A stretch of DNA of 64,000 bases, taken from positions 199,687 to 263,686 of IMG/VR virus record IMGVR_UViG_3300021387_001774. The stretch is one strand, 5' to 3'. Of the stretch, positions 3,423 through 64,000 are shown one piece after another. The notes beneath the pieces were generated by a model. That model was given only the letters and a program-made list of their open reading frames with translations. It did not search any database and was not told the origin of the DNA. The DNA is from a virus. Taxonomy: Duplodnaviria > Caudoviricetes. A program made the position numbers and the translations under genes. Positions within the stretch are counted from its first letter, which is position 1. Each line of letters starts with the position of its first letter.

Positions 3423-3582
3423 TTTTTTATATATAAAGAACAAATAGATGTATTTCTATTACAGTAGATAGTGTAAAAACTGAAAATTTTTTAGTTATAT
3501 ATTATATGACTGAATGTAGAGATACATCCAAAAACAAAGTAGCCAAAGCGCGCGCTACTAAATATTTCTTCAGGAGGGCCAT

Positions 3583-3747
3583 ATGGCTGACAATGAAAAG
3601 AAGGGATTTGTAAAGTCTGTAACAGACTCAGTTAAGGACGTGGTACCAAAGACCACAGGTGGAAAGGTTGCTGGCGGTGTATTCGCCGGATTGCTTTCTG
3701 TTGGATCCTTCTTTATTGGAAGGATTACAAAGAAATCAAAGAAGTAA
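3583..3747 (+). CDS. 54-aa small membrane protein (not in ORF track)
   Basis: AGGAGGG RBS at 3572; MADNEKKGFVKSVTDSVKDVVPKTTGGKVAGGVFAGLLSVGSFFIGRITKKSKK, a Gly-rich TM segment with a basic tail. Confidence 0.8.
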   Translation: MADNEKKGFVKSVTDSVKDVVPKTTGGKVAGGVFAGLLSVGSFFIGRITKKSKK

Positions 3748-3757
3748 TCTTTCTGGT

Positions 3758-3818
3758 AGCACTATAGTTTAAATGGTAAAACAGTTTATCTATGGGAGTT
3801 CAAATCTCCCTAGTGCTG
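3758..3818 (+). ncRNA. tRNA-like RNA lacking the anticodon arm
   Basis: Acceptor AGCACTA/TAGTGCT, D arm GTTT-AAATGGTA-AAAC, T arm GGGAG-TTCAAAT-CTCCC; only 11 nt between the D and T arms. Confidence 0.8.
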
Positions 3819-3890
3819 TATGAAAATCTTATTAACTAAAGATTTTCATAATTGACTCCTTGGGGACCCGGTAGTAACCGGGTCCCATTT
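3819..3890 (+). ncRNA. candidate antisense sRNA S1 (hairpin - anti-SD toehold - terminator)
   Basis: Hairpin TATGAAAATCTT/AAGATTTTCATA, single-stranded ATTGACTCCTT, terminator GGGACCCGG/CCGGGTCCC; 3840-3861 is complementary to 18754-18776. Confidence 0.65.
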
Positions 3891-3937
3891 TATATTTTTT
3901 TTCTAATTATATATTATATAAGTGGAGGATTTAAACT

Positions 3938-4831
3938 ATGAATTTAGGAACAGATTTTGAGGTCTTGAGTGAATATCCACTTTGGACATACGACGAACAT
4001 GATAAGCCAGTATTGATACAGAATACATACGATAATATCAATGTAATTCGTTATTGGCCTATGGGTAAAAAGAATCATCATTTTTATGATATCCCTATTG
4101 AAGAACCAATTACAGCATTTATGCCGTTTGGAACATTCTTCTTTAAAACACAAGAAGAATGTGCTAGATTTGGTAAATTAATCGATTCTCAAGAGGGTAA
4201 GCAGACAGTTCTAGAAAATTCGTATGAGTGTTCTAGAAAAAATAAACATATAGTTAAAATGAGTTGTAGAGATGATATACCTAATGGTATATATTCTACT
4301 AAAGTATTAGACGATATTATAAATGCTGATGAACTCTTTAACTTACGTTATGTAGATGAAGAGTGTAAAATAAAAGAAATTATGCAAGCTAATGACATCA
4401 TTAATAAATATGTAAGAGAATACATGAAGATGTTTACTTTTACAGAACGTCATGATTTACGATATGAGAGAGTTTTATTTGAATTATATAAAGAAGGAAA
4501 TAAACTATATATTAATCACGTTTTTATAAGTTGCGGTAGTTATTTTACAAATAATGATATTTTATTACATTCAAGGATAATGAATTATCCTATTTGTGTA
4601 GCACCAAATTGTGCTAAAACTGTACAAATAGTTTTGACAAATGGTGGTTTTAATGCATTGAGTATGCAAGAACGACAAATTTCTTTGAAAAATATTAAAG
4701 ATGCAAAAGCTAGAAAAGAAAGACATAAAAAATTAGCTAAAAATATTGCTAAGATGTGTGGAGAATATGCTTGGGAACATAAAGGTGAGATATTCATGAA
4801 ACTAAAGAGCTTAGTGTCTACAGTTGTATAA
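3938..4831 (+). CDS. hypothetical early protein
   Basis: GGAGG RBS, early promoter at 3905. Confidence 0.8.
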   Translation: MNLGTDFEVLSEYPLWTYDEHDKPVLIQNTYDNINVIRYWPMGKKNHHFYDIPIEEPITAFMPFGTFFFKTQEECARFGKLIDSQEGKQTVLENSYECSRKNKHIVKMSCRDDIPNGIYSTKVLDDIINADELFNLRYVDEECKIKEIMQANDIINKYVREYMKMFTFTERHDLRYERVLFELYKEGNKLYINHVFISCGSYFTNNDILLHSRIMNYPICVAPNCAKTVQIVLTNGGFNALSMQERQISLKNIKDAKARKERHKKLAKNIAKMCGEYAWEHKGEIFMKLKSLVSTVV

Positions 4832-8404: not shown

Positions 8405-8488
8405 TTCTGCTAACAAATAACATTCATAGGCTGGTGTGTTTTTGTTCTCCTTTTTATGGTAGCTTGTTAAGCTACCATATTTTTTTTT
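8405..8488 (+). ncRNA. candidate anti-SD sRNA S2 in the tRNA-Asn trailer
   Basis: Weak hairpin, then TTGTTCTCCTTT, then terminator ATGGTAGC/GCTACCAT with a T tract. Confidence 0.45.
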
Positions 8489-13100: not shown

Positions 13101-13216
13101 AAAAAAATAAAAAGGAGGAGATCGCTAACTGGGTGGGAAGAAATGCGACCTCCTCCTAACATAAGGAAGAAAAATGGGGAAAGCTATTAGAGAATGGACA
13201 CTCTATAGCTTCCATG
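13101..13216 (-). ncRNA. candidate antisense sRNA S3
   Basis: Own early-type promoter (13232-13218), 5' hairpin, single-stranded CCATTTTTCTTCCTTATGTT, terminator AGGAGGAG/CTCCTCCT with a T tract; no ORF. Confidence 0.7.
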
Positions 13217-13824: not shown

Positions 13825-15816
13825 ATGAATCTTCTTAAAGATACACCGTGTACATTCCGTTATGGTTTGTATCATACATCAGATCATAAAGTTCTTATAG
13901 TGTTTCTAAAATCTAAAGAAGAAATTAATGATTATTCTAGTACTATTCTAGAAACACTCTATGAAAATGCTATATTTCTTAATTATAAAATAAATAAGAA
14001 CGAAACCGTTAAAGTTACATGTAGTGATAATCAAGTAACTATGAAACAATTCGATTCAGATATTAACAATTATTGTAAAAAATATGGTAATACTACAGAT
14101 GAAATACGTGTAATAAATGCAACACCAGAGCATAAATTGCTTTTTGGTATTGATGTATTTACTACTATAGTAAATAATACAAAGAATCTGTATATGGAAC
14201 TTGGTGAAAGTGGTTTTCATGTTAGTTCTTCAGAGTTTAATACGCTTGATACGTTTACTATTCAAACAGGTAAGTTATATCCAGAATCAACAGTTAATCT
14301 TTATGTAAAGAAAATATCTGTTATGAATCTAGAAATAACTGTAGCTAATAAAGATGAAGATATTCATGCTTTTAACTTTATTATTTCTTCGTTTGCAAAT
14401 ATAATTTATCTCAAACTCTATTCTACTATTACTACAATTATTACTGCTGGTTCTAAAGAAGGCGAAAATATTTCTAATGCAAAACTTATTTCTAACTATA
14501 TTGAATTTTATGGTGAAGAAAAAGTAGAAGATAATAATAAAGAACGATTAGGAATATTTGGATTCAAGAGTGCATTAATTGGTGAGATTCAAGTAAATGA
14601 AGAAGTTGTTGTAGGTAATATTCTTAAAGTTGATAAATTAGTTTCATTTACTTTAAATAGATTTCATAGAAAGATTAATTCTATGTCTAATGGATATGGG
14701 GTTTGTATATATAGAGTAGCTAATGTAAATCTTTCTGATTTATCATATGAGATAACTAAAGATTCCGATATTCCTAAGGATGTATCTATTGTACATTTCC
14801 TTAAAGATACAGATAGTGGTTTCCATAAAAAGATATTTTTATACAATTCTTCTATTAAAAATGCGACCGATAATAATATTACGTTACTTTCATTAGAAGA
14901 AACAACTGTAGAAAATGTTTATATTTCTGATTGTGAAATTGGTAATGGAGTAACATTTATAAAGAAACACGACGATACTGAAATATTAAAATTAACATTT
15001 AATAATATTACTATGGATGTTATAGAAGATATCTTGTTTAATAATGTAGATAAACTCTATTTTACAAATTGCATATTTACTACTCTTGGTACTATAAGTG
15101 TAACTAGCGAATTTATAAGTATCAACGGAGGAATGTGGAAGTTTAAGAAGTGTGAACTTGGAAATAGTAACTTTATTTCACATAATGTAAATATACAGAA
15201 TGTTGAATTCCATGGAGACATCTTTAATGTATTAAATGATAGAGCAAATTCTCTAGATGGAAAATTTTTCGATAATGATAGTAAAATAGATGTAGAAAAA
15301 ATAACTGTTGATGGATATCAGACATCTTTAGCTGGTACCGTGTTATATAGCAAATCGTTTGTATGTGGTTGTGATAAAACACTTACTTTAACTCGTGCAA
15401 CTATAGATATAAAAGAATCCTCAGAAATTACAGCAAATTGTTCATTGTCTGGTACTCTTATGGCTATTAGTGATGATCCAGAATACAAACTAAACATTAA
15501 AGTAGAAGATAAAGAGAAGTTCTTATCTAATAATACCTTAGATATTATAAGTATTGGTGGAGAATCACCAATTATTAAATGTATTACAAATAATACATTA
15601 AAGGTGAAACTTATAAATGATAGTAATGATATTTTCTATATTGATTATCTTAGTGATTATAATTCTGATCAGAACTCTAGAATAACTTTTGTACCATTAT
15701 TTGATAATCCTATAGATTACAAAGTTATCACAGATACTGAAAAACTTGTTCAGATAAATAAAATGGAATCCTCCAAAGAAAATAGCGATATAGTTTTTGA
15801 AGTAATCAAAAAATAA
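13825..15816 (+). CDS. hypothetical protein with beta-helix-like C-terminal half
   Basis: 663 aa; I/N/F/T-rich alternating strands. Confidence 0.75.
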   Translation: MNLLKDTPCTFRYGLYHTSDHKVLIVFLKSKEEINDYSSTILETLYENAIFLNYKINKNETVKVTCSDNQVTMKQFDSDINNYCKKYGNTTDEIRVINATPEHKLLFGIDVFTTIVNNTKNLYMELGESGFHVSSSEFNTLDTFTIQTGKLYPESTVNLYVKKISVMNLEITVANKDEDIHAFNFIISSFANIIYLKLYSTITTIITAGSKEGENISNAKLISNYIEFYGEEKVEDNNKERLGIFGFKSALIGEIQVNEEVVVGNILKVDKLVSFTLNRFHRKINSMSNGYGVCIYRVANVNLSDLSYEITKDSDIPKDVSIVHFLKDTDSGFHKKIFLYNSSIKNATDNNITLLSLEETTVENVYISDCEIGNGVTFIKKHDDTEILKLTFNNITMDVIEDILFNNVDKLYFTNCIFTTLGTISVTSEFISINGGMWKFKKCELGNSNFISHNVNIQNVEFHGDIFNVLNDRANSLDGKFFDNDSKIDVEKITVDGYQTSLAGTVLYSKSFVCGCDKTLTLTRATIDIKESSEITANCSLSGTLMAISDDPEYKLNIKVEDKEKFLSNNTLDIISIGGESPIIKCITNNTLKVKLINDSNDIFYIDYLSDYNSDQNSRITFVPLFDNPIDYKVITDTEKLVQINKMESSKENSDIVFEVIKK

Positions 15817-17648: not shown

Positions 17649-17713
17649 CGTCTTATAGCTCAGTGGTAGAGCGGTGGACGCATAATCCGTTGGTCCGAAT
17701 CCAAGTAAGACTC
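17649..17713 (+). pseudogene. degenerate tRNA(CAT)
   Basis: D arm and anticodon arm present, but G at position 33, 1-72 mismatch and the 5' half of the T arm deleted (GGTC^CGAATCCAAG). Confidence 0.75.
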
Positions 17714-17986: not shown

Positions 17987-18134
17987 GGTATAGCAAAACG
18001 GCTAGTCATTGATACGTATCATTAGGTGATAGGACTTCTTAAGCGTAGTTCAAACCATTATAGTTGAAACTTATTGCTGGGAAGACTTAATGATATTAGT
18101 ACTTTGATTGTGAGTTCGATCCTCACCTATACCA
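17987..18134 (+). ncRNA. 148-nt tRNA-like RNA with a long rod replacing the D/anticodon arms
   Basis: Acceptor GGTATAG/CTATACC-A, T arm GTGAG-TTCGATC-CTCAC, internal helices TATCATTAGG/CTTAATGATA and CTTCTTAAGC/GCTGGGAAG. Confidence 0.65.
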
Positions 18135-18137
18135 ATC

Positions 18138-18390
18138 GGTGGTTTATAACAAAGTGGCTAAAAAGTATGCCCACCATCAAGCTTCTTTCTTCATTGTATA
18201 CTGGGGAGAAAAGAAGTATAAATATCCTACCACGCATGCGTGATCGCTTATACTGCTGTAGCCATGAGAAAGTCGCTAGTATAAGACGGAAGAGTAGGTA
18301 CTTTTACAAATGAACAGTCCCTTTGCCTGTTTCGAGAACGACGGCATTTGTAGAAGTAATGGTTTATAGCTGGTTATGAAATAGGCACTT
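18138..18390 (+). ncRNA. multibranched structured RNA within the tRNA cluster
   Basis: Helices TTTATAAC/GTTATGAA, CCTAC/GTAGG, CTTATACT/AGTATAAG, TACTTTTACAAATG/CATTTGTAGAAGTA; raised GC. Confidence 0.55.
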
Positions 18391-18544: not shown

Positions 18545-18765
18545 AGAGTATATAGGTGAAGGGCAACAACCTGTATACTTATATGATTAGAGCCAACTTG
18601 GTAGAGGCTTTAGTTGTATGTACCTCTTATATTGAAGAGTGGGTTTCGCCGCCCACTCTTCTTTTTTTATACTGTTAGAGAGAGAGTGTCAATTATATAT
18701 TATATTAATAGTAAGGAATGGAAATTGGTTCCATATCCGAAAGAGATTTCATTAAGGAGTCAATT

Positions 18766-19353
18766 ATGGAAAATCTCAGAGAAATTAATGATGACATTAT
18801 GCTTTATGTCATTAAAAGATCAAGCAGTTCACATGAAGAATATACGGGGATTCCACTCCCCGTATATTTTGTAGATCTACGTGATCTTTACAAAAATGCT
18901 ATTGAGGTCGGCATTTTTGATTATATAGCTGACCTCACGGCTGGATCGTCAGCATTCTGTTTCAGATACGGAATAGTTTGCGATGAACGGATCAAGAATA
19001 ATTCTGAATTGGCCTTTATTCTTCATCATGAGGCAGGTCATATCTTAAATGGAGACATTTATGAACCTTCTGATGATGATGAAAAGGAGTATGCTGCAGA
19101 TCGTCATGCTTATGATGTGACACACCATATTCCTGATTTTAGTAAGATGATCATTGATTATGCGATTCATTGTTTCGATGAATTCACTGATCAAGAGATC
19201 AATGAAATAACTTCAGGGAATTTCAGCGGCCTTGAAGATTATAGAATGACTGCTGAAAAGATGCTTTCTGAGAGCGAATGTGGAGAAGCTTTGACTCTTA
19301 GAAAATTAAAACTGCAAGAGTACATAAACTCTAAAAACGAGTTTAATTATTAG
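18766..19353 (+). CDS. HExxH zinc metallopeptidase (ImmA/IrrE-like); start reassigned to ATG 18766
   Basis: LHHEAGH...EKEYAADRHA; AAGGAG RBS at 18754. Confidence 0.75.
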   Translation: MENLREINDDIMLYVIKRSSSSHEEYTGIPLPVYFVDLRDLYKNAIEVGIFDYIADLTAGSSAFCFRYGIVCDERIKNNSELAFILHHEAGHILNGDIYEPSDDDEKEYAADRHAYDVTHHIPDFSKMIIDYAIHCFDEFTDQEINEITSGNFSGLEDYRMTAEKMLSESECGEALTLRKLKLQEYINSKNEFNY

Positions 19354-19481: not shown

Positions 19482-19552
19482 ACCTGAGTAGGAGAAATGA
19501 AAGGGTCGCCTAGAGAAAGGTCTACTATGTTATAGGGATAATCACAAAGGAG
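19482..19552 (+). promoter_or_regulatory. conserved structured 5' leader RNA, copy A
   Basis: ACCT-GAGTAGGAGAAATGAAA-GGGT, hairpin, CTA, hairpin, GGATAA; other copies at 30656, 46426, 47032 and 57801. Confidence 0.8.
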
Positions 19553-19557
19553 CAATT

Positions 19558-20163
19558 ATGAAATATACTGCTAAGACAAACGGAAAGATTACTTATGATG
19601 TTAAGGCAACAGACAATGCTACAGGCGTCATTACTAATCTTTGGAAAAAGATCTCAGGCATTATTTCAAATTCAAAAGAAGACACCAGTACCCAAAAGGT
19701 TGAAAAACCTGAAGGGGGGTTGATCGCTGGTGGTGTTTTCGAATGGAATGTCGAAGCAAATCTCGATATTACAGTCGAAGAAATGGCTGAGTTATTTAAG
19801 ATCAGCAAGGAGAATGATCTCCATGCCTGGGATCTTCTCAAAACCGCCGGAAAAGATCTCGTAAAGGGATCAAGAGTCCTTCTCAACGAATTCAAGGCAC
19901 AGGGTCCAGAATGGATGGACGCTGTGCACTCCATGGACCTCATATCTGAGGATCAGGAAAAGGAGCGTGAGCTCCATAAGTTCAGAAATGAACGTGAGCT
20001 CGATGCCGAGATTAAGAAGGCTGGCTGGACTCGTAAAGGTTCATTCTGGTATGAAAATGAGACAGAGGGTCGTAAAACCTCAGTCCATTTCAACGGCTTC
20101 AAGAAGGACAAAAAGGATGAACCTCACAAGGGTTCATTCGACAACCTCAACGACGAGGAGTAG
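19558..20163 (+). CDS. hypothetical early cassette protein
   Basis: AAGGAG RBS; GC higher than flanking genes. Confidence 0.85.
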   Translation: MKYTAKTNGKITYDVKATDNATGVITNLWKKISGIISNSKEDTSTQKVEKPEGGLIAGGVFEWNVEANLDITVEEMAELFKISKENDLHAWDLLKTAGKDLVKGSRVLLNEFKAQGPEWMDAVHSMDLISEDQEKERELHKFRNERELDAEIKKAGWTRKGSFWYENETEGRKTSVHFNGFKKDKKDEPHKGSFDNLNDEE

Positions 20164-40208: not shown

Positions 40209-40316
40209 TTGAAAGAATAGAAGGGTGCTGCCATCCACCCTTCTTTTTTTATTTTTTTCTTAAATATATATTATAAGAAAGATACTTACAATAAAATATC
40301 TATAAAGGAGTAAATT

Positions 40317-40541
40317 ATGGCAGTTGTTAGAATTAATAAAGCTGGTAAAAGAATCCATCATCGTAATCCTTCGGGATTCATAAATAAAATAAGGTATTTG
40401 TTATGCGAATCAAAAAGAGATATTGGTAAACTACGATATATTGTTAAATATGAAATAGATTATACTAATTGTGGTAAAGCGACTTGGGATCATGCATATT
40501 CGATGGCTTTGAAACTAATAATTAATGGAGATACTTTATAA
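40317..40541 (+). CDS. small hypothetical protein
   Basis: AAGGAG RBS. Confidence 0.75.
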   Translation: MAVVRINKAGKRIHHRNPSGFINKIRYLLCESKRDIGKLRYIVKYEIDYTNCGKATWDHAYSMALKLIINGDTL

Positions 40542-43518: not shown

Positions 43519-43539
43519 ATTTTATTATAACATATAAAT

Positions 43540-43726
43540 ATACTTGTATGTACACGAATTGAATTTTGAAATTTTTGATTAAAGAAATTTGCCTTTTTGT
43601 AGGAAGTGTTATGAACATAGTATAACCCACTAGTTTATAACGCGGGTCGTATCAATGGGTTAGATACGATAACATAACCTCGTGACTACATATTTCCCTT
43701 AGTCACGAGGTTATTATTTTTTTTTT
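43540..43726 (+). ncRNA. candidate late sRNA S4 (pseudoknot-capable, anti-SD terminator loop)
   Basis: Late promoter at 43529; TCGTATC/GATACGA hairpin whose loop TGGGTTA can pair with upstream TAACCCA; 14-bp terminator stem with loop ACATATTTCCCTT. Confidence 0.55.
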
Positions 43727-43793
43727 GAATCAATGTATGGTTTTCTAGTTTTTACCGCATTGATTAGAAAAATTTAAAACGATATATTTTTAT

Positions 43794-43904
43794 GCCTGCG
43801 TTTTGTCATTTTCGGTAATGGTTGATAGAAATGTTTGAAAGACACCTTATAAAGGTGAATCGAATGAGCAGTCTATCATAGAGGTTCAAAACCTTTCGTG
43901 GGCG
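43794..43904 (+). ncRNA. 111-nt tRNA-like RNA with extended anticodon arm
   Basis: Acceptor GCCTGCG/CGTGGGC, D-like hairpin TCATT/AATGG, TGATAGA/TCTATCA enclosing CACCTT/AAGGTG, T arm AGAGG-TTCAAAA-CCTTT. Confidence 0.65.
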
Positions 43905-44052
43905 TTTGACAATTCAGACTGTCATGTCCCCTTATTGGCGGGTGTTTTTCATGCTTTCCTCCTTATTCATGTTAAACATTAGGGATACGGTGCTCCTGAA
44001 TGGTTACTTGCTCGTACTGATGTACTGCTGTCGTTGACAGCAGTACTTTTTT
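43905..44052 (+). ncRNA. candidate antisense sRNA S5 in the tRNA-like trailer
   Basis: Hairpin TGTTT..CATG/CATG..AAACA presenting loop CTTTCCTCCTTATT; terminator GTACTGCTGTC/GACAGCAGTAC. Confidence 0.6.
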
Positions 44053-47031: not shown

Positions 47032-47104
47032 AACCTAAGTAGGAGAAATGAAAGGGTTGCTTCGGAGATGAAGCCTACCAGAAATGGGGATAAAGCACAA
47101 GGAG
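47032..47104 (+). promoter_or_regulatory. conserved structured 5' leader RNA, copy C
   Basis: AACCT...GGGTT, GCTTC/GAAGC, CTA, CCA-GAAA-TGG, GGATAA. Confidence 0.8.
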
Positions 47105-47111
47105 TTATATT

Positions 47112-47846
47112 ATGACTAAAGAAGAAAAGGGTATTTCGAAAGACGCAGAGTTTTCAAAACATTTTTTAACAGTATTTTCAAGTGTTATACATGCATTTAA
47201 AACTCTTCCAAAAGATGTTAAAGAAAAAATTGAAAAATCCGTCGATGAATGTTTGGTAACGTGTTCTCCTTATTCATTAACATATTTTGCTAATACATTA
47301 AAAAGATGGCAAACAAAAGATATTGTCGAAAATGAAAAGAAGGAAACGGAAACAACTGAAGATAAAACTATAACAACTTTGGCAGACTTTATTAATGAAA
47401 AGAATGAAAAGTGTATAGAATTAGGAACACCAAGGGGCGGTAATTATGAACCTTCGGATATTAAAGCCTATCGAACTCTTGCTTTAATATTGATTGACAA
47501 AGATTGTTGGTGTGATGGGTGGAAGAGAGATGCAGATTCAATGGTGCTCATTTTATCTGAAAAAGGTACACAAATGATGAGAGAATGCGTCGAGATTCTT
47601 GGAAGCGAATCATTAGAATCAAATCCATTTATTATTGATCCAGTTATTTCTTCAAGAACTTATATACAAATTAAAGGATTTTATAAAACAAACATGAAAA
47701 TTGTATTGGGTCGAAGAAATATTTCTATTGATACTGAGAAAGAATTACAGTTCATAATTGATAGACTTTGCATGTTAGGAAATACATCTAAGGAACAAAT
47801 AGTGGATTCGATTAATGACTTGAAGTCACGCTTCAACAGTTTCTAA
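47112..47846 (+). CDS. hypothetical early cassette protein
   Basis: AAGGAG RBS. Confidence 0.8.
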   Translation: MTKEEKGISKDAEFSKHFLTVFSSVIHAFKTLPKDVKEKIEKSVDECLVTCSPYSLTYFANTLKRWQTKDIVENEKKETETTEDKTITTLADFINEKNEKCIELGTPRGGNYEPSDIKAYRTLALILIDKDCWCDGWKRDADSMVLILSEKGTQMMRECVEILGSESLESNPFIIDPVISSRTYIQIKGFYKTNMKIVLGRRNISIDTEKELQFIIDRLCMLGNTSKEQIVDSINDLKSRFNSF

Positions 47847-62201: not shown

Positions 62202-63653
62202 ATGCCTATTAAATACAAAAATAGTGGAAATGACCTTATAAATAACGTTCCATTTGTAGAAAAACTAAAAGAGAGTGAATCATATAGTAAAATGGATGAC
62301 ATGATGTCGGAAATAACTTCCGAACGTCTAAAAATGAAAGCATCTTCTATGATAAATATGGTAGGAGTATTGACTCCTGTTCTATATTATCAAGCTGTAC
62401 ATGATTCAACTAATAACTACAATACTGATTCAACAGGACCTTCAGATATAGCATTTGATGTAAAGAAATTTATAGAAATCAAGAATTTCAGAATCAAATT
62501 ATCTGGAGAAACTAATTTAGAAAACGAAAACGAAGAAGATGAGCAATCATATATAAGTACAGGATCTTTTATAGTACTTCCAAGAACTATTCAACCTTCT
62601 CCAGGTGATATGTTTATGATGGAGTATTATGGTAGAAACATGTGCTATCAAGTTACTACTGTAAATACTGTTACTTATGAAAATGATTCTGGTTTTGAAT
62701 GCGAATATACGCTTTATAAAGCCGATTATAAGATACCTAGTGGGCAAATAGCTGCTAGACGAATTTATAGACATGAATTAATTGGTACTACTTATAGAGC
62801 TGTATTTGATGAATATGAAGTAGAGCTTATAAATAAATTTGAAAAACTTTATAAGCATATGGAAACTGTATTCAATAACCTCTTTTATGACAAAGAAATT
62901 GATGGTTATATATGTAAAAACTACGATATAGAACGCAATAAAAGTCAAGAATTGGACAATTATAATATAAATACGTTAGGTAAACGATATGGTGTATTTA
63001 GAGCAAACACAAGTGATGACTCTAGATCTCACCAAGTAATTCCAAGAGAAGTTACTACTCAATACAAGATTTATGATAACCTTTTGAATATATTCATGGG
63101 TAAAAATCATGTATTTAGAGACTTCAATGGATTGTTATTAGCTATAGAGCCCAAGATGGGTATTGATAATGTGAATTATAGACGTTCTGTTTTTGGTTGC
63201 GTGGAAACTCAATCTATTTCTAATTACAGGAATACTTTTGTTTTACCAGTGAAAATTGAACGCTTAACTCCAGAAATCAATGCTTATTTCGTAGGAAAAT
63301 TCAATGTAATTCATGATGATGAAGTAAGTTCATTTCCTGAGTTATTTGATTTCTTCCCGAAATCTTTGATAGAAAAGATCAAGAATGGAAAGAATCAAGA
63401 TATGAACCTTAAATTCGGCGGAATTGTTTATAATTCTATTGAAAGTGTTCTTATTGATACAATTGTAAGATATATCTATAAACGTACTGATGACTTTGTA
63501 GATAGATTCTTATATTTGTTTGATAATACAGATAATCTATATGAGCATAACATCTCATATGCTAATATTTATTATCTCTTTCCTATTATTGGTTATATCA
63601 TAGAGCGTAAGCTTGAAGAGATGTATACTAGTAACTCGTTACTTAATACGTAA
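62202..63653 (+). CDS. virion structural protein (head completion/neck-like)
   Basis: GSFIVLPRTIQPSPGDMF...YQVTTV beta-barrel pattern; late promoter at 62169. Confidence 0.6.
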   Translation: MPIKYKNSGNDLINNVPFVEKLKESESYSKMDDMMSEITSERLKMKASSMINMVGVLTPVLYYQAVHDSTNNYNTDSTGPSDIAFDVKKFIEIKNFRIKLSGETNLENENEEDEQSYISTGSFIVLPRTIQPSPGDMFMMEYYGRNMCYQVTTVNTVTYENDSGFECEYTLYKADYKIPSGQIAARRIYRHELIGTTYRAVFDEYEVELINKFEKLYKHMETVFNNLFYDKEIDGYICKNYDIERNKSQELDNYNINTLGKRYGVFRANTSDDSRSHQVIPREVTTQYKIYDNLLNIFMGKNHVFRDFNGLLLAIEPKMGIDNVNYRRSVFGCVETQSISNYRNTFVLPVKIERLTPEINAYFVGKFNVIHDDEVSSFPELFDFFPKSLIEKIKNGKNQDMNLKFGGIVYNSIESVLIDTIVRYIYKRTDDFVDRFLYLFDNTDNLYEHNISYANIYYLFPIIGYIIERKLEEMYTSNSLLNT

Positions 63654-63686
63654 TTATTTATTTTTACACACATAGGAGTATAAACT

Positions 63687-64000
63687 ATGGCAAGACGTAA
63701 TCCTTGGTTTTCATTTGAATCAGATAATGATGAGATTGATCTTGAACAAGATGTAACTGGTACTGTTACAGAACTAGATGAAACAGCTGTAGATGAAGCT
63801 GGTGAAGATTCTGAAACTGTAGATGTTACACCTGATACTAATGAAACATCTCATAATGAAGTAGCATCTGCTGGTGGTGTAGCTACTGGTAACAATGCTG
63901 ATCAGTTAGAGATGGATCCTGTAGCTGCTACTGAATCATATATTCGTAGAGTATTTGGATTATCTAGAGAAGATATGGAAGAAGCTACAGATCAGATAGA
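63687..64000 (+). CDS. acidic head protein, 3'-truncated by the window edge
   Basis: AGGAG RBS; MARRNPWFSFESDNDE...AATESY...GLSRED, with several S/A-x-E motifs. Confidence 0.75.
   Translation, partial: MARRNPWFSFESDNDEIDLEQDVTGTVTELDETAVDEAGEDSETVDVTPDTNETSHNEVASAGGVATGNNADQLEMDPVAATESYIRRVFGLSREDMEEATDQI

Follow-up and report, generated by a model that had tools for sequence, protein, structure and literature searches.

A short RNA encoded by a jumbo phage, here called S1, is probably (we put this at roughly 60%) a trans-acting antisense RNA of about 72 nt, similar to the csRNAs of Streptococcus, which would be released from a longer transcript by RNase Z and would damp several early genes of the phage. 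Computational analysis showed a fold under selection, a conserved seed, complementarity to the starts of early genes, and phage promoter motifs ahead of the unit.

The window analyzed is a stretch of 64,000 bp, positions 199687-263686 of a whole virus record (G000; 263,686 bp, 29.5% GC). Custom scripts served to delineate the gene starts of G000 (224 genes), its promoters, and its terminators. Since the best protein matches of G000 are from PBS1/AR9, phiR1-37, LPJP1, and LY01 (22-23% identity), we regard it as an AR9/PBS1-like jumbo phage (264 kb). The window encodes the beta subunit of a phage RNA polymerase, and bovine gut metagenomes contain close relatives of G000. A strongly repeated motif in G000 matches the AR9 early promoter, AAATATATATTAT-N6-G, and non-early genes are preceded by the AR9 late motif, AACA-N6-TA/G, more often than expected (20/94, against a shuffle mean of 10.3 and maximum of 18); the consensus of both promoter types is given in PMC5312081. 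Fifty-nine of the 224 called genes are the first gene behind an early promoter. Throughout G000, leader cassettes consisting of promoter, hairpin, and ribosome-binding site (RBS) are duplicated before unrelated early genes, with up to 29 identical nt at the start site. The PeSL early cassettes of T4-like phages are shuffled promoter-hairpin-RBS units of the same kind. In the following, L-numbers denote contigs or loci of other assemblies, including relatives, and G001 is a more distant relative (32% complete). On contig L122 (1-1382), a homologue of a 297-aa early gene with a phage early promoter lies amid bacterial genes of about 60% GC (PP2C, alpha-2-macroglobulin, and PBP1C), possibly through gene capture or as a chimeric contig, and this may be a clue to the host.

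The S1 transcription unit consists of the following elements.
3439-3450, plus strand: late promoter motif of the AR9 type (AACA-N6-TG), heading the unit and kept in L119, L121, L123, and L125
3493-3512, plus strand: early (virion RNA polymerase) promoter of the AR9 type, predicted start G3512
3583-3747, plus strand: 54-aa open reading frame (ORF) with a hydrophobic C-terminal half, predicted to be co-transcribed with S1
3758-3818, plus strand: tRNA-like module with a 7-bp acceptor, D arm, T arm, discriminator G3818, and no CCA
3819-3850, plus strand: 5' hairpin of S1 (12 bp, 3819-3830 with 3839-3850), which cages the anti-AUG and begins at the predicted RNase Z cut
3851-3862, plus strand: single-stranded toehold complementary to Shine-Dalgarno (SD) sequence and spacer, predicted to be unpaired in the processed RNA with a probability of 0.95 or more
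3863-3893, plus strand: intrinsic terminator (stem 3863-3886 plus U tract), rewritten in sequence but kept in pairing in relatives

The early promoter of the unit is one base off the G000 consensus, to which the L123 copy conforms; the 54-aa ORF has no PHROG family. The first-pass annotation had described S1 as a hairpin, a free linker, and a terminator, and this fold was recovered by prediction (z of -6.7 relative to shuffles), so that S1 appears as two stem-loops flanking an unpaired anti-SD stretch. In every variant, the anti-start codon CAU (3847-3849) is part of the hairpin stem, on its 3' side. Masking of the toehold was also predicted in the uncut precursor, to which we gave little weight, as it depends on pairing within the ORF that L121 lacks.

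That S1 is preceded by a tRNA mimic without an anticodon, as noticed earlier, was borne out by a score of 46.7 bits against the Rfam tRNA model, with the anticodon arm deleted in the alignment. A short variable segment, differing in length and sequence among relatives, replaces this arm. The module has no anticodon stem or 7-nt loop and ARAGORN called no tRNA at 3758-3818, and we therefore rejected a functional tRNA gene at this position. CCA is not encoded, likewise in the five true tRNAs of the window, and the phage record yielded no CCA-adding enzyme. RNase Z cleaves CCA-less precursors immediately after the discriminator and needs the acceptor and T arm, not the anticodon loop; in the structure of the Bacillus subtilis enzyme, the acceptor stem and T arm are touched and the anticodon loop is not (PMC7479834). 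A cut after G3818 would place the 5' end of S1 at the base of its hairpin.

Further tRNA-like elements were observed. At 17988-18134 of the window and 14411-14545 of L127, an element with acceptor, T arm, and encoded CCA has its anticodon region replaced by a large, variable insert; neither ARAGORN nor Rfam at its cut-off detected it. A degenerate tRNA-Met copy with a shortened T arm (32.4 bits in Rfam) lies at 17649-17713, and 18138-18390 and 43529-44052 are additional long, structured, GC-richer non-coding stretches. In G001 (63624-63695, minus strand), a hairpin with a GAAA tetraloop replaces the anticodon loop of a tRNA-like element directly upstream of a gene. The AR9 record (NC_031039.1, about 208903-208975) contains a canonical-looking tRNA gene that is not annotated there. 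On unrelated phage contigs in IMG/VR (L005-L115), we saw some 45 different tRNA-like units that have no anticodon, many of them just upstream of genes; a simple pattern search found no S1-like anti-start trailer among them.

Syntenic S1 loci were reached in several assemblies via homologues of the downstream gene, and the unit is kept at the corresponding position in related phages, in which the identity of the downstream gene is 43-71%. The comparison set comprised six distinct S1 sequences including that of G000; a seventh differs in the terminator only. Across the unit, 95.7% of cells are paired, against 40-50% in slid controls, and double changes occur in 7 of 37 pairs, a level reached by none or one of 500 shuffles. 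The acceptor, D, and T helices of the tRNA-like module are paired in 100% of cells, with double changes in the acceptor and T stems. The mean pairwise difference is 5% in the conserved antisense core (3844-3861, 18 nt) and 9% in the tRNA arms, against 38% in the segment replacing the anticodon, 43% in the terminator, 65% in the hairpin loop, and 50% at four-fold sites of the adjacent ORF. Because the linker is unpaired yet conserved between rewritten flanks, it bears the signature of a sequence-specific seed, and sequence selection on the anti-SD/AUG stretch is supported. Relatives also keep the complementarity: the two substitutions in the core (A to G and C to U) each leave a G-U pair with the target. 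These two tolerated transitions are weak evidence; no compensatory change between S1 and target was found among the compared variants.

A covariance model of S1 matched just an ordinary tRNA and a genuine gene start in AR9, gave no match in phiR1-37, LPJP1, or LY01, and did not reveal a clear S1 paralogue within G000. The S1 locus is absent from the available part of G001, isolated phages gave no DNA match, and neither the S1 pattern nor a relative of the peptidase described below was found in IMG/VR. One GTDB match (L198) was rejected as an ordinary terminator behind a tRNA.

The opposite strand reads SD-N6-ATG, and sigma70-like sites are present, so that a minus-strand minigene or dead gene start transcribed from a sigma70-like promoter (3906-3942) could be imagined. 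This is scarcely probable: the encoded peptide would have only 3-12 aa and is not conserved, the SD is damaged in L123, the match to the -10 element is a mere reverse of the early promoter motif, and the tRNA fold, promoters, and U tract all lie on the plus strand.

The complementarity of S1 to gene starts involves the following sites in the window.
18754-18776, plus strand: best target site, comprising the SD, ATG, and first codons of a 195-aa HExxH metallopeptidase-like gene (18766-19353)
19547-19563, plus strand: secondary target, start of a 201-aa early gene (19558-20163), 17 bp with one bulge
47098-47115, plus strand: weaker target, start of a 244-aa early gene (47112-47846)
40305-40319, plus strand: weak match (14/15) at the start of a 74-aa gene (40317), rank 11 and not convincing as a target

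All four matches had been reported in the first-pass annotation, and their coordinates hold. Positions 3840-3861 of S1 are the reverse complement of 18754-18776 in 15 + 7 pairs with one bulged G, spanning the SD and the ATG at 18766. The 15-mer from SD to ATG has two further copies in G000, each at a gene start, namely that of the peptidase-like gene and that of a 109-aa gene (G000:108242, minus strand) outside the window, which had been missed. The probability of such a match had been proposed as a check. A given 15-mer is expected 0.001 times in the genome, and given a start of the form AAGGAG-N6-ATG, the spacer matching S1 is expected 0.05 times. The best-target energy of -28 kcal/mol was reached by 0 of 250 plain shuffles and by 1 of 250 shuffles in which the anti-SD and anti-AUG were kept; in the most conservative null, with the query rebuilt from parts of real start sites, the best target was matched in 19 of 250 cases and the top three in 36 of 250. 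Furthermore, when the anti-start 22-mer of each gene itself served as the query, 8 of 224 reached -27 on another gene, several via duplicated leaders. The match thus goes well beyond a generic anti-SD, yet a genome-wide probability for 22 bp would overstate its significance. The two perfect sites count as one event rather than two independent ones, because the peptidase and 109-aa genes have homologous promoter-hairpin-RBS leaders.

Among the 224 start regions (mean duplex energy -11.9, sd 3.4), S1 pairs best with the peptidase gene (-28.0), the 109-aa gene (-23.5), a 315-aa gene (G000:114881; -22.4), and the 19558 gene (-20.9), followed by two genes at about -20, including 47112. With opening costs included (mean -5.0, sd 2.5), the peptidase gene ranks second of 224 (-13.0), with the 47112 and 315-aa genes next; the 109-aa (-7.7) and 201-aa (19558; -5.4) genes are then unremarkable, and the target list past the peptidase is for this reason provisional. 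In the predicted leaders of the top three targets, the SD and spacer are partly exposed in a loop. The site of the 109-aa gene is kept in relatives, in that of the 315-aa gene the changes seen across three runs are confined to the stretch separating the SD block from the CAATT-ATG block, and that of the 19558 gene is more variable. The best targets encode 109-315 aa and lie 15-95 kb off, and the adjacent 54-aa ORF is outside the top 40 targets of S1; a type I toxin-antitoxin arrangement was accordingly rejected.

The peptidase-like gene has an early promoter at 18691-18703, and its predicted leader hairpin (18743-18777) leaves the SD and spacer mostly in a loop. Its identification as a metallopeptidase is of modest confidence, pointing to the invariant residues H88, E89, H92, and E108, a PHROG metallo-protease match (E 1e-4), a Pfam M48 match below the cut-off, and M48/M78-like Atlas clusters; the predicted structure (pLDDT 41) was too poor for use. 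The first-pass annotation had taken S1 for a trans-acting translational repressor with a toehold and a 22-bp match to this gene; read narrowly, S1 would be a repressor dedicated to the peptidase and comparable to an antitoxin. In favor of this narrow reading, none of the five S1 variants ranked has a better target than the peptidase, full opening of the S1 hairpin is predicted for the peptidase mRNA only, and the peptidase site shows no change across L116-L118 and L142-L143. However, in four of the six variants (L119, L121, L125, and L130) the base that perfects the 7-bp extension and the base opposite it in the S1 hairpin are both changed while the peptidase site stays constant, so that the extension covaries within the S1 hairpin and not with the peptidase mRNA. 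Moreover, L127 has an intact S1 on a contig with a clean deletion of the peptidase gene at that locus and damage to its promoter, and several early genes carry the site, one of them, the 109-aa gene, perfectly. An exclusive role at the peptidase appears quite unlikely. The regions 14816-14890 and 15420-15450 of L127 show an extra tRNA-like gene, located where the decayed or absent ones would be, and this precise deletion of the peptidase gene.

The top five targets of the core are all first genes behind early promoters (p of about 0.001, post hoc), and no late motif was found upstream of them; with a stricter start position there was no early-gene enrichment. S1 might also be a real antisense RNA aimed mainly at host mRNAs or at strong SD sites in general, serving host shut-off or reallocation of resources, with the phage matches being secondary. 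The toehold resembles the 3' tail of 16S rRNA and AAGGAG is carried by 53 of 224 phage genes; S1 persists in L127, where the best phage target is lost at its locus, and the streptococcal csRNAs share the design (weak Rfam match; PMC3091779). In contrast, the conserved core takes in the spacer and thereby selects the rare phage early genes with CAATT before the ATG, which are 5 of 224, four of them first genes behind early promoters and identical with the top four targets of S1. Two further units, S3 and the trailer of tRNA-Gln, likewise point at classes of phage early genes. We consider a mainly host-directed role unlikely.

These two units and a third were found when the 25 nt before each of the 92 terminators of G000 were scored against all start regions.
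13101-13213, minus strand: sister unit S3, with early promoter, hairpin, anti-start linker, and terminator but no ORF
18545-18667, plus strand: 3' trailer of tRNA-Gln, with hairpins, anti-SD/AUG linker, and terminator
8405-8488, plus strand: 3' trailer of tRNA-Asn with an anti-SD linker, a weaker, possible sister unit

With two overlaps with own starts set aside, S1 ranked first (-29.4), followed by the tRNA-Gln trailer (-23.7), S3 (-23.3), and the tRNA-Asn trailer (-22.1); the best score for the 222 terminators of AR9, phiR1-37, LPJP1, and LY01 was -22.4. In relatives, the hairpin and terminator of S3 are rewritten while its 16-nt linker is invariant. Its top eight targets include six early-first genes, and a family of early paralogues is matched. 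The tRNA-Gln trailer is conserved and is predicted to pair best with the starts of an early 179-aa gene (G000:36560) and of the 54-aa ORF that precedes S1; units of this type may therefore cross-regulate. The tRNA-Asn trailer is kept in close relatives and replaced in L123. Judging from the sequences, S1 seems to be one of a set of three or four such units.

Such a set bears on the idea that the conserved linker serves to bind a protein or acts as a decoy, perhaps as a sponge that takes up an RNA-binding protein; its complementarity would then go back to an early leader cassette that was duplicated in inverted orientation. In support of this, duplicated cassettes of that type are visible in G000, the 5' arm of S1 copies the sense start sequence, and conservation by itself is no proof of pairing. 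Three or four units with differing linkers, each antisense to another class of start sites, speak against it, and a shared protein motif is not evident; we regard it as distinctly improbable.

The preferred reading, an antisense RNA acting on several early genes, is consistent with what is found for trans-acting RNAs directed at ribosome-binding sites, since an accessible, conserved seed complementary to distant initiation regions was computed for S1. The csRNAs of Streptococcus (CiaR regulon; RF02379), with several related RNAs per genome, have been proposed to block ribosome binding in trans (PMC3091779). As in csRNAs, two stem-loops surround an anti-SD/anti-start stretch, but in S1 the anti-AUG is caged in a stem, whereas it is unpaired in csRNAs, and S1 is encoded by a phage behind a tRNA-like module and phage early and late promoter motifs. 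S1 scored 26.1 bits (E 0.33) against the csRNA family, for which the cut-off is 57, and the L125 and L130 variants gave no match at E<=1. AbsR28 and other Rfam matches to S1 were rejected as generic hairpin matches below the cut-off.

The C4 antisense RNA of phages P1 and P7, as outlined in PMC5320573 with reference to Hartmann 1995, has about 75 nt, is matured by a host tRNA-processing enzyme, and occludes phage ribosome-binding sites. S1 is predicted to share both the maturation by tRNA enzymes and the covering of phage ribosome-binding sites. As far as that account goes, the RNase P substrate itself is the regulator in C4, with a'/b' loops, whereas the tRNA-like part of S1 would be a separate tag; and C4 acts on its own operon in temperate immunity, whereas the targets of S1 are 15-95 kb off. 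The Rfam C4 family gave no match to S1 at E<=10. The CI RNA of phage P4 is another antisense RNA of this kind, its maturation likewise relying on a host enzyme that processes tRNAs. In the tRNA 3' trailer 3'ETS-leuZ of E. coli, a base-pairing RNA follows a functional tRNA, is released by RNase E, and sponges sRNAs. In the tRNA-miRNA-encoded RNAs (TMERs) of MHV68, a viral tRNA-like element is followed by regulatory hairpins that are released by tRNase Z (PMC4838037). Unlike S1, TMERs belong to a eukaryotic virus and involve Pol III, Dicer, and miRNA silencing, so that they are analogues without homology. By analogy, S1 would act like a csRNA, mature like C4, and be built like a TMER, without belonging to any of the three. 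An incomplete search of the phage literature found no description of such an arrangement.

Taken together, S1 may be transcribed from the late and early phage promoters behind the 54-aa ORF, with the tRNA-like module as a processing tag that host RNase P would cut at its 5' side and RNase Z after G3818. The released RNA would have a 5' end protected by the hairpin. Its toehold could pair with the AAGGAG and spacer of target leaders and then invade the AUG region, and the duplex would block loading of the 30S subunit. S1 carries both types of promoter, its top targets only the early one; accumulation of S1 could therefore serve as a delay switch, a timer that lowers the expression of early genes in the course of infection. 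For other classes of early genes, this task would fall to S3 and the tRNA-Gln trailer. In phage T4, the proteins RegA and RegB turn early mRNAs down at initiation regions; the proposed agent here would act at start sites in the same way but is an RNA. More tentatively, and at somewhat less than even odds, this jumbo-phage clade, of lytic type, may run a network of several small RNAs, in which tRNAs and the armless mimic serve as RNase P/Z tags and toehold-gated antisense RNAs each fit one class of early leader cassettes, so that RNA and not protein times the early shut-off.

What small RNAs do in lytic phages is for the most part an open question. A dRNA-seq study of phiKZ confirmed no small RNA (PMC8244752), the targets of the LUZ7 candidates are unknown (PMC9163698), and AR9 early transcripts, many of which fall in level at later stages, have unexplained motifs in long 5' UTRs (PMC5312081). 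With its predicted ends, seed, and targets, S1 is a concrete example, and it points to an RNA-based off-switch of a kind rarely documented in lytic phages. It also suggests a role for anticodon-less tRNA-like elements, which are common yet unannotated in phage contigs. A hairpin-gated repressor released by a tRNA tag would suit synthetic biology as a compact part. If true, the network of tRNA-tagged RNAs would be a prokaryotic counterpart of the herpesvirus TMERs.
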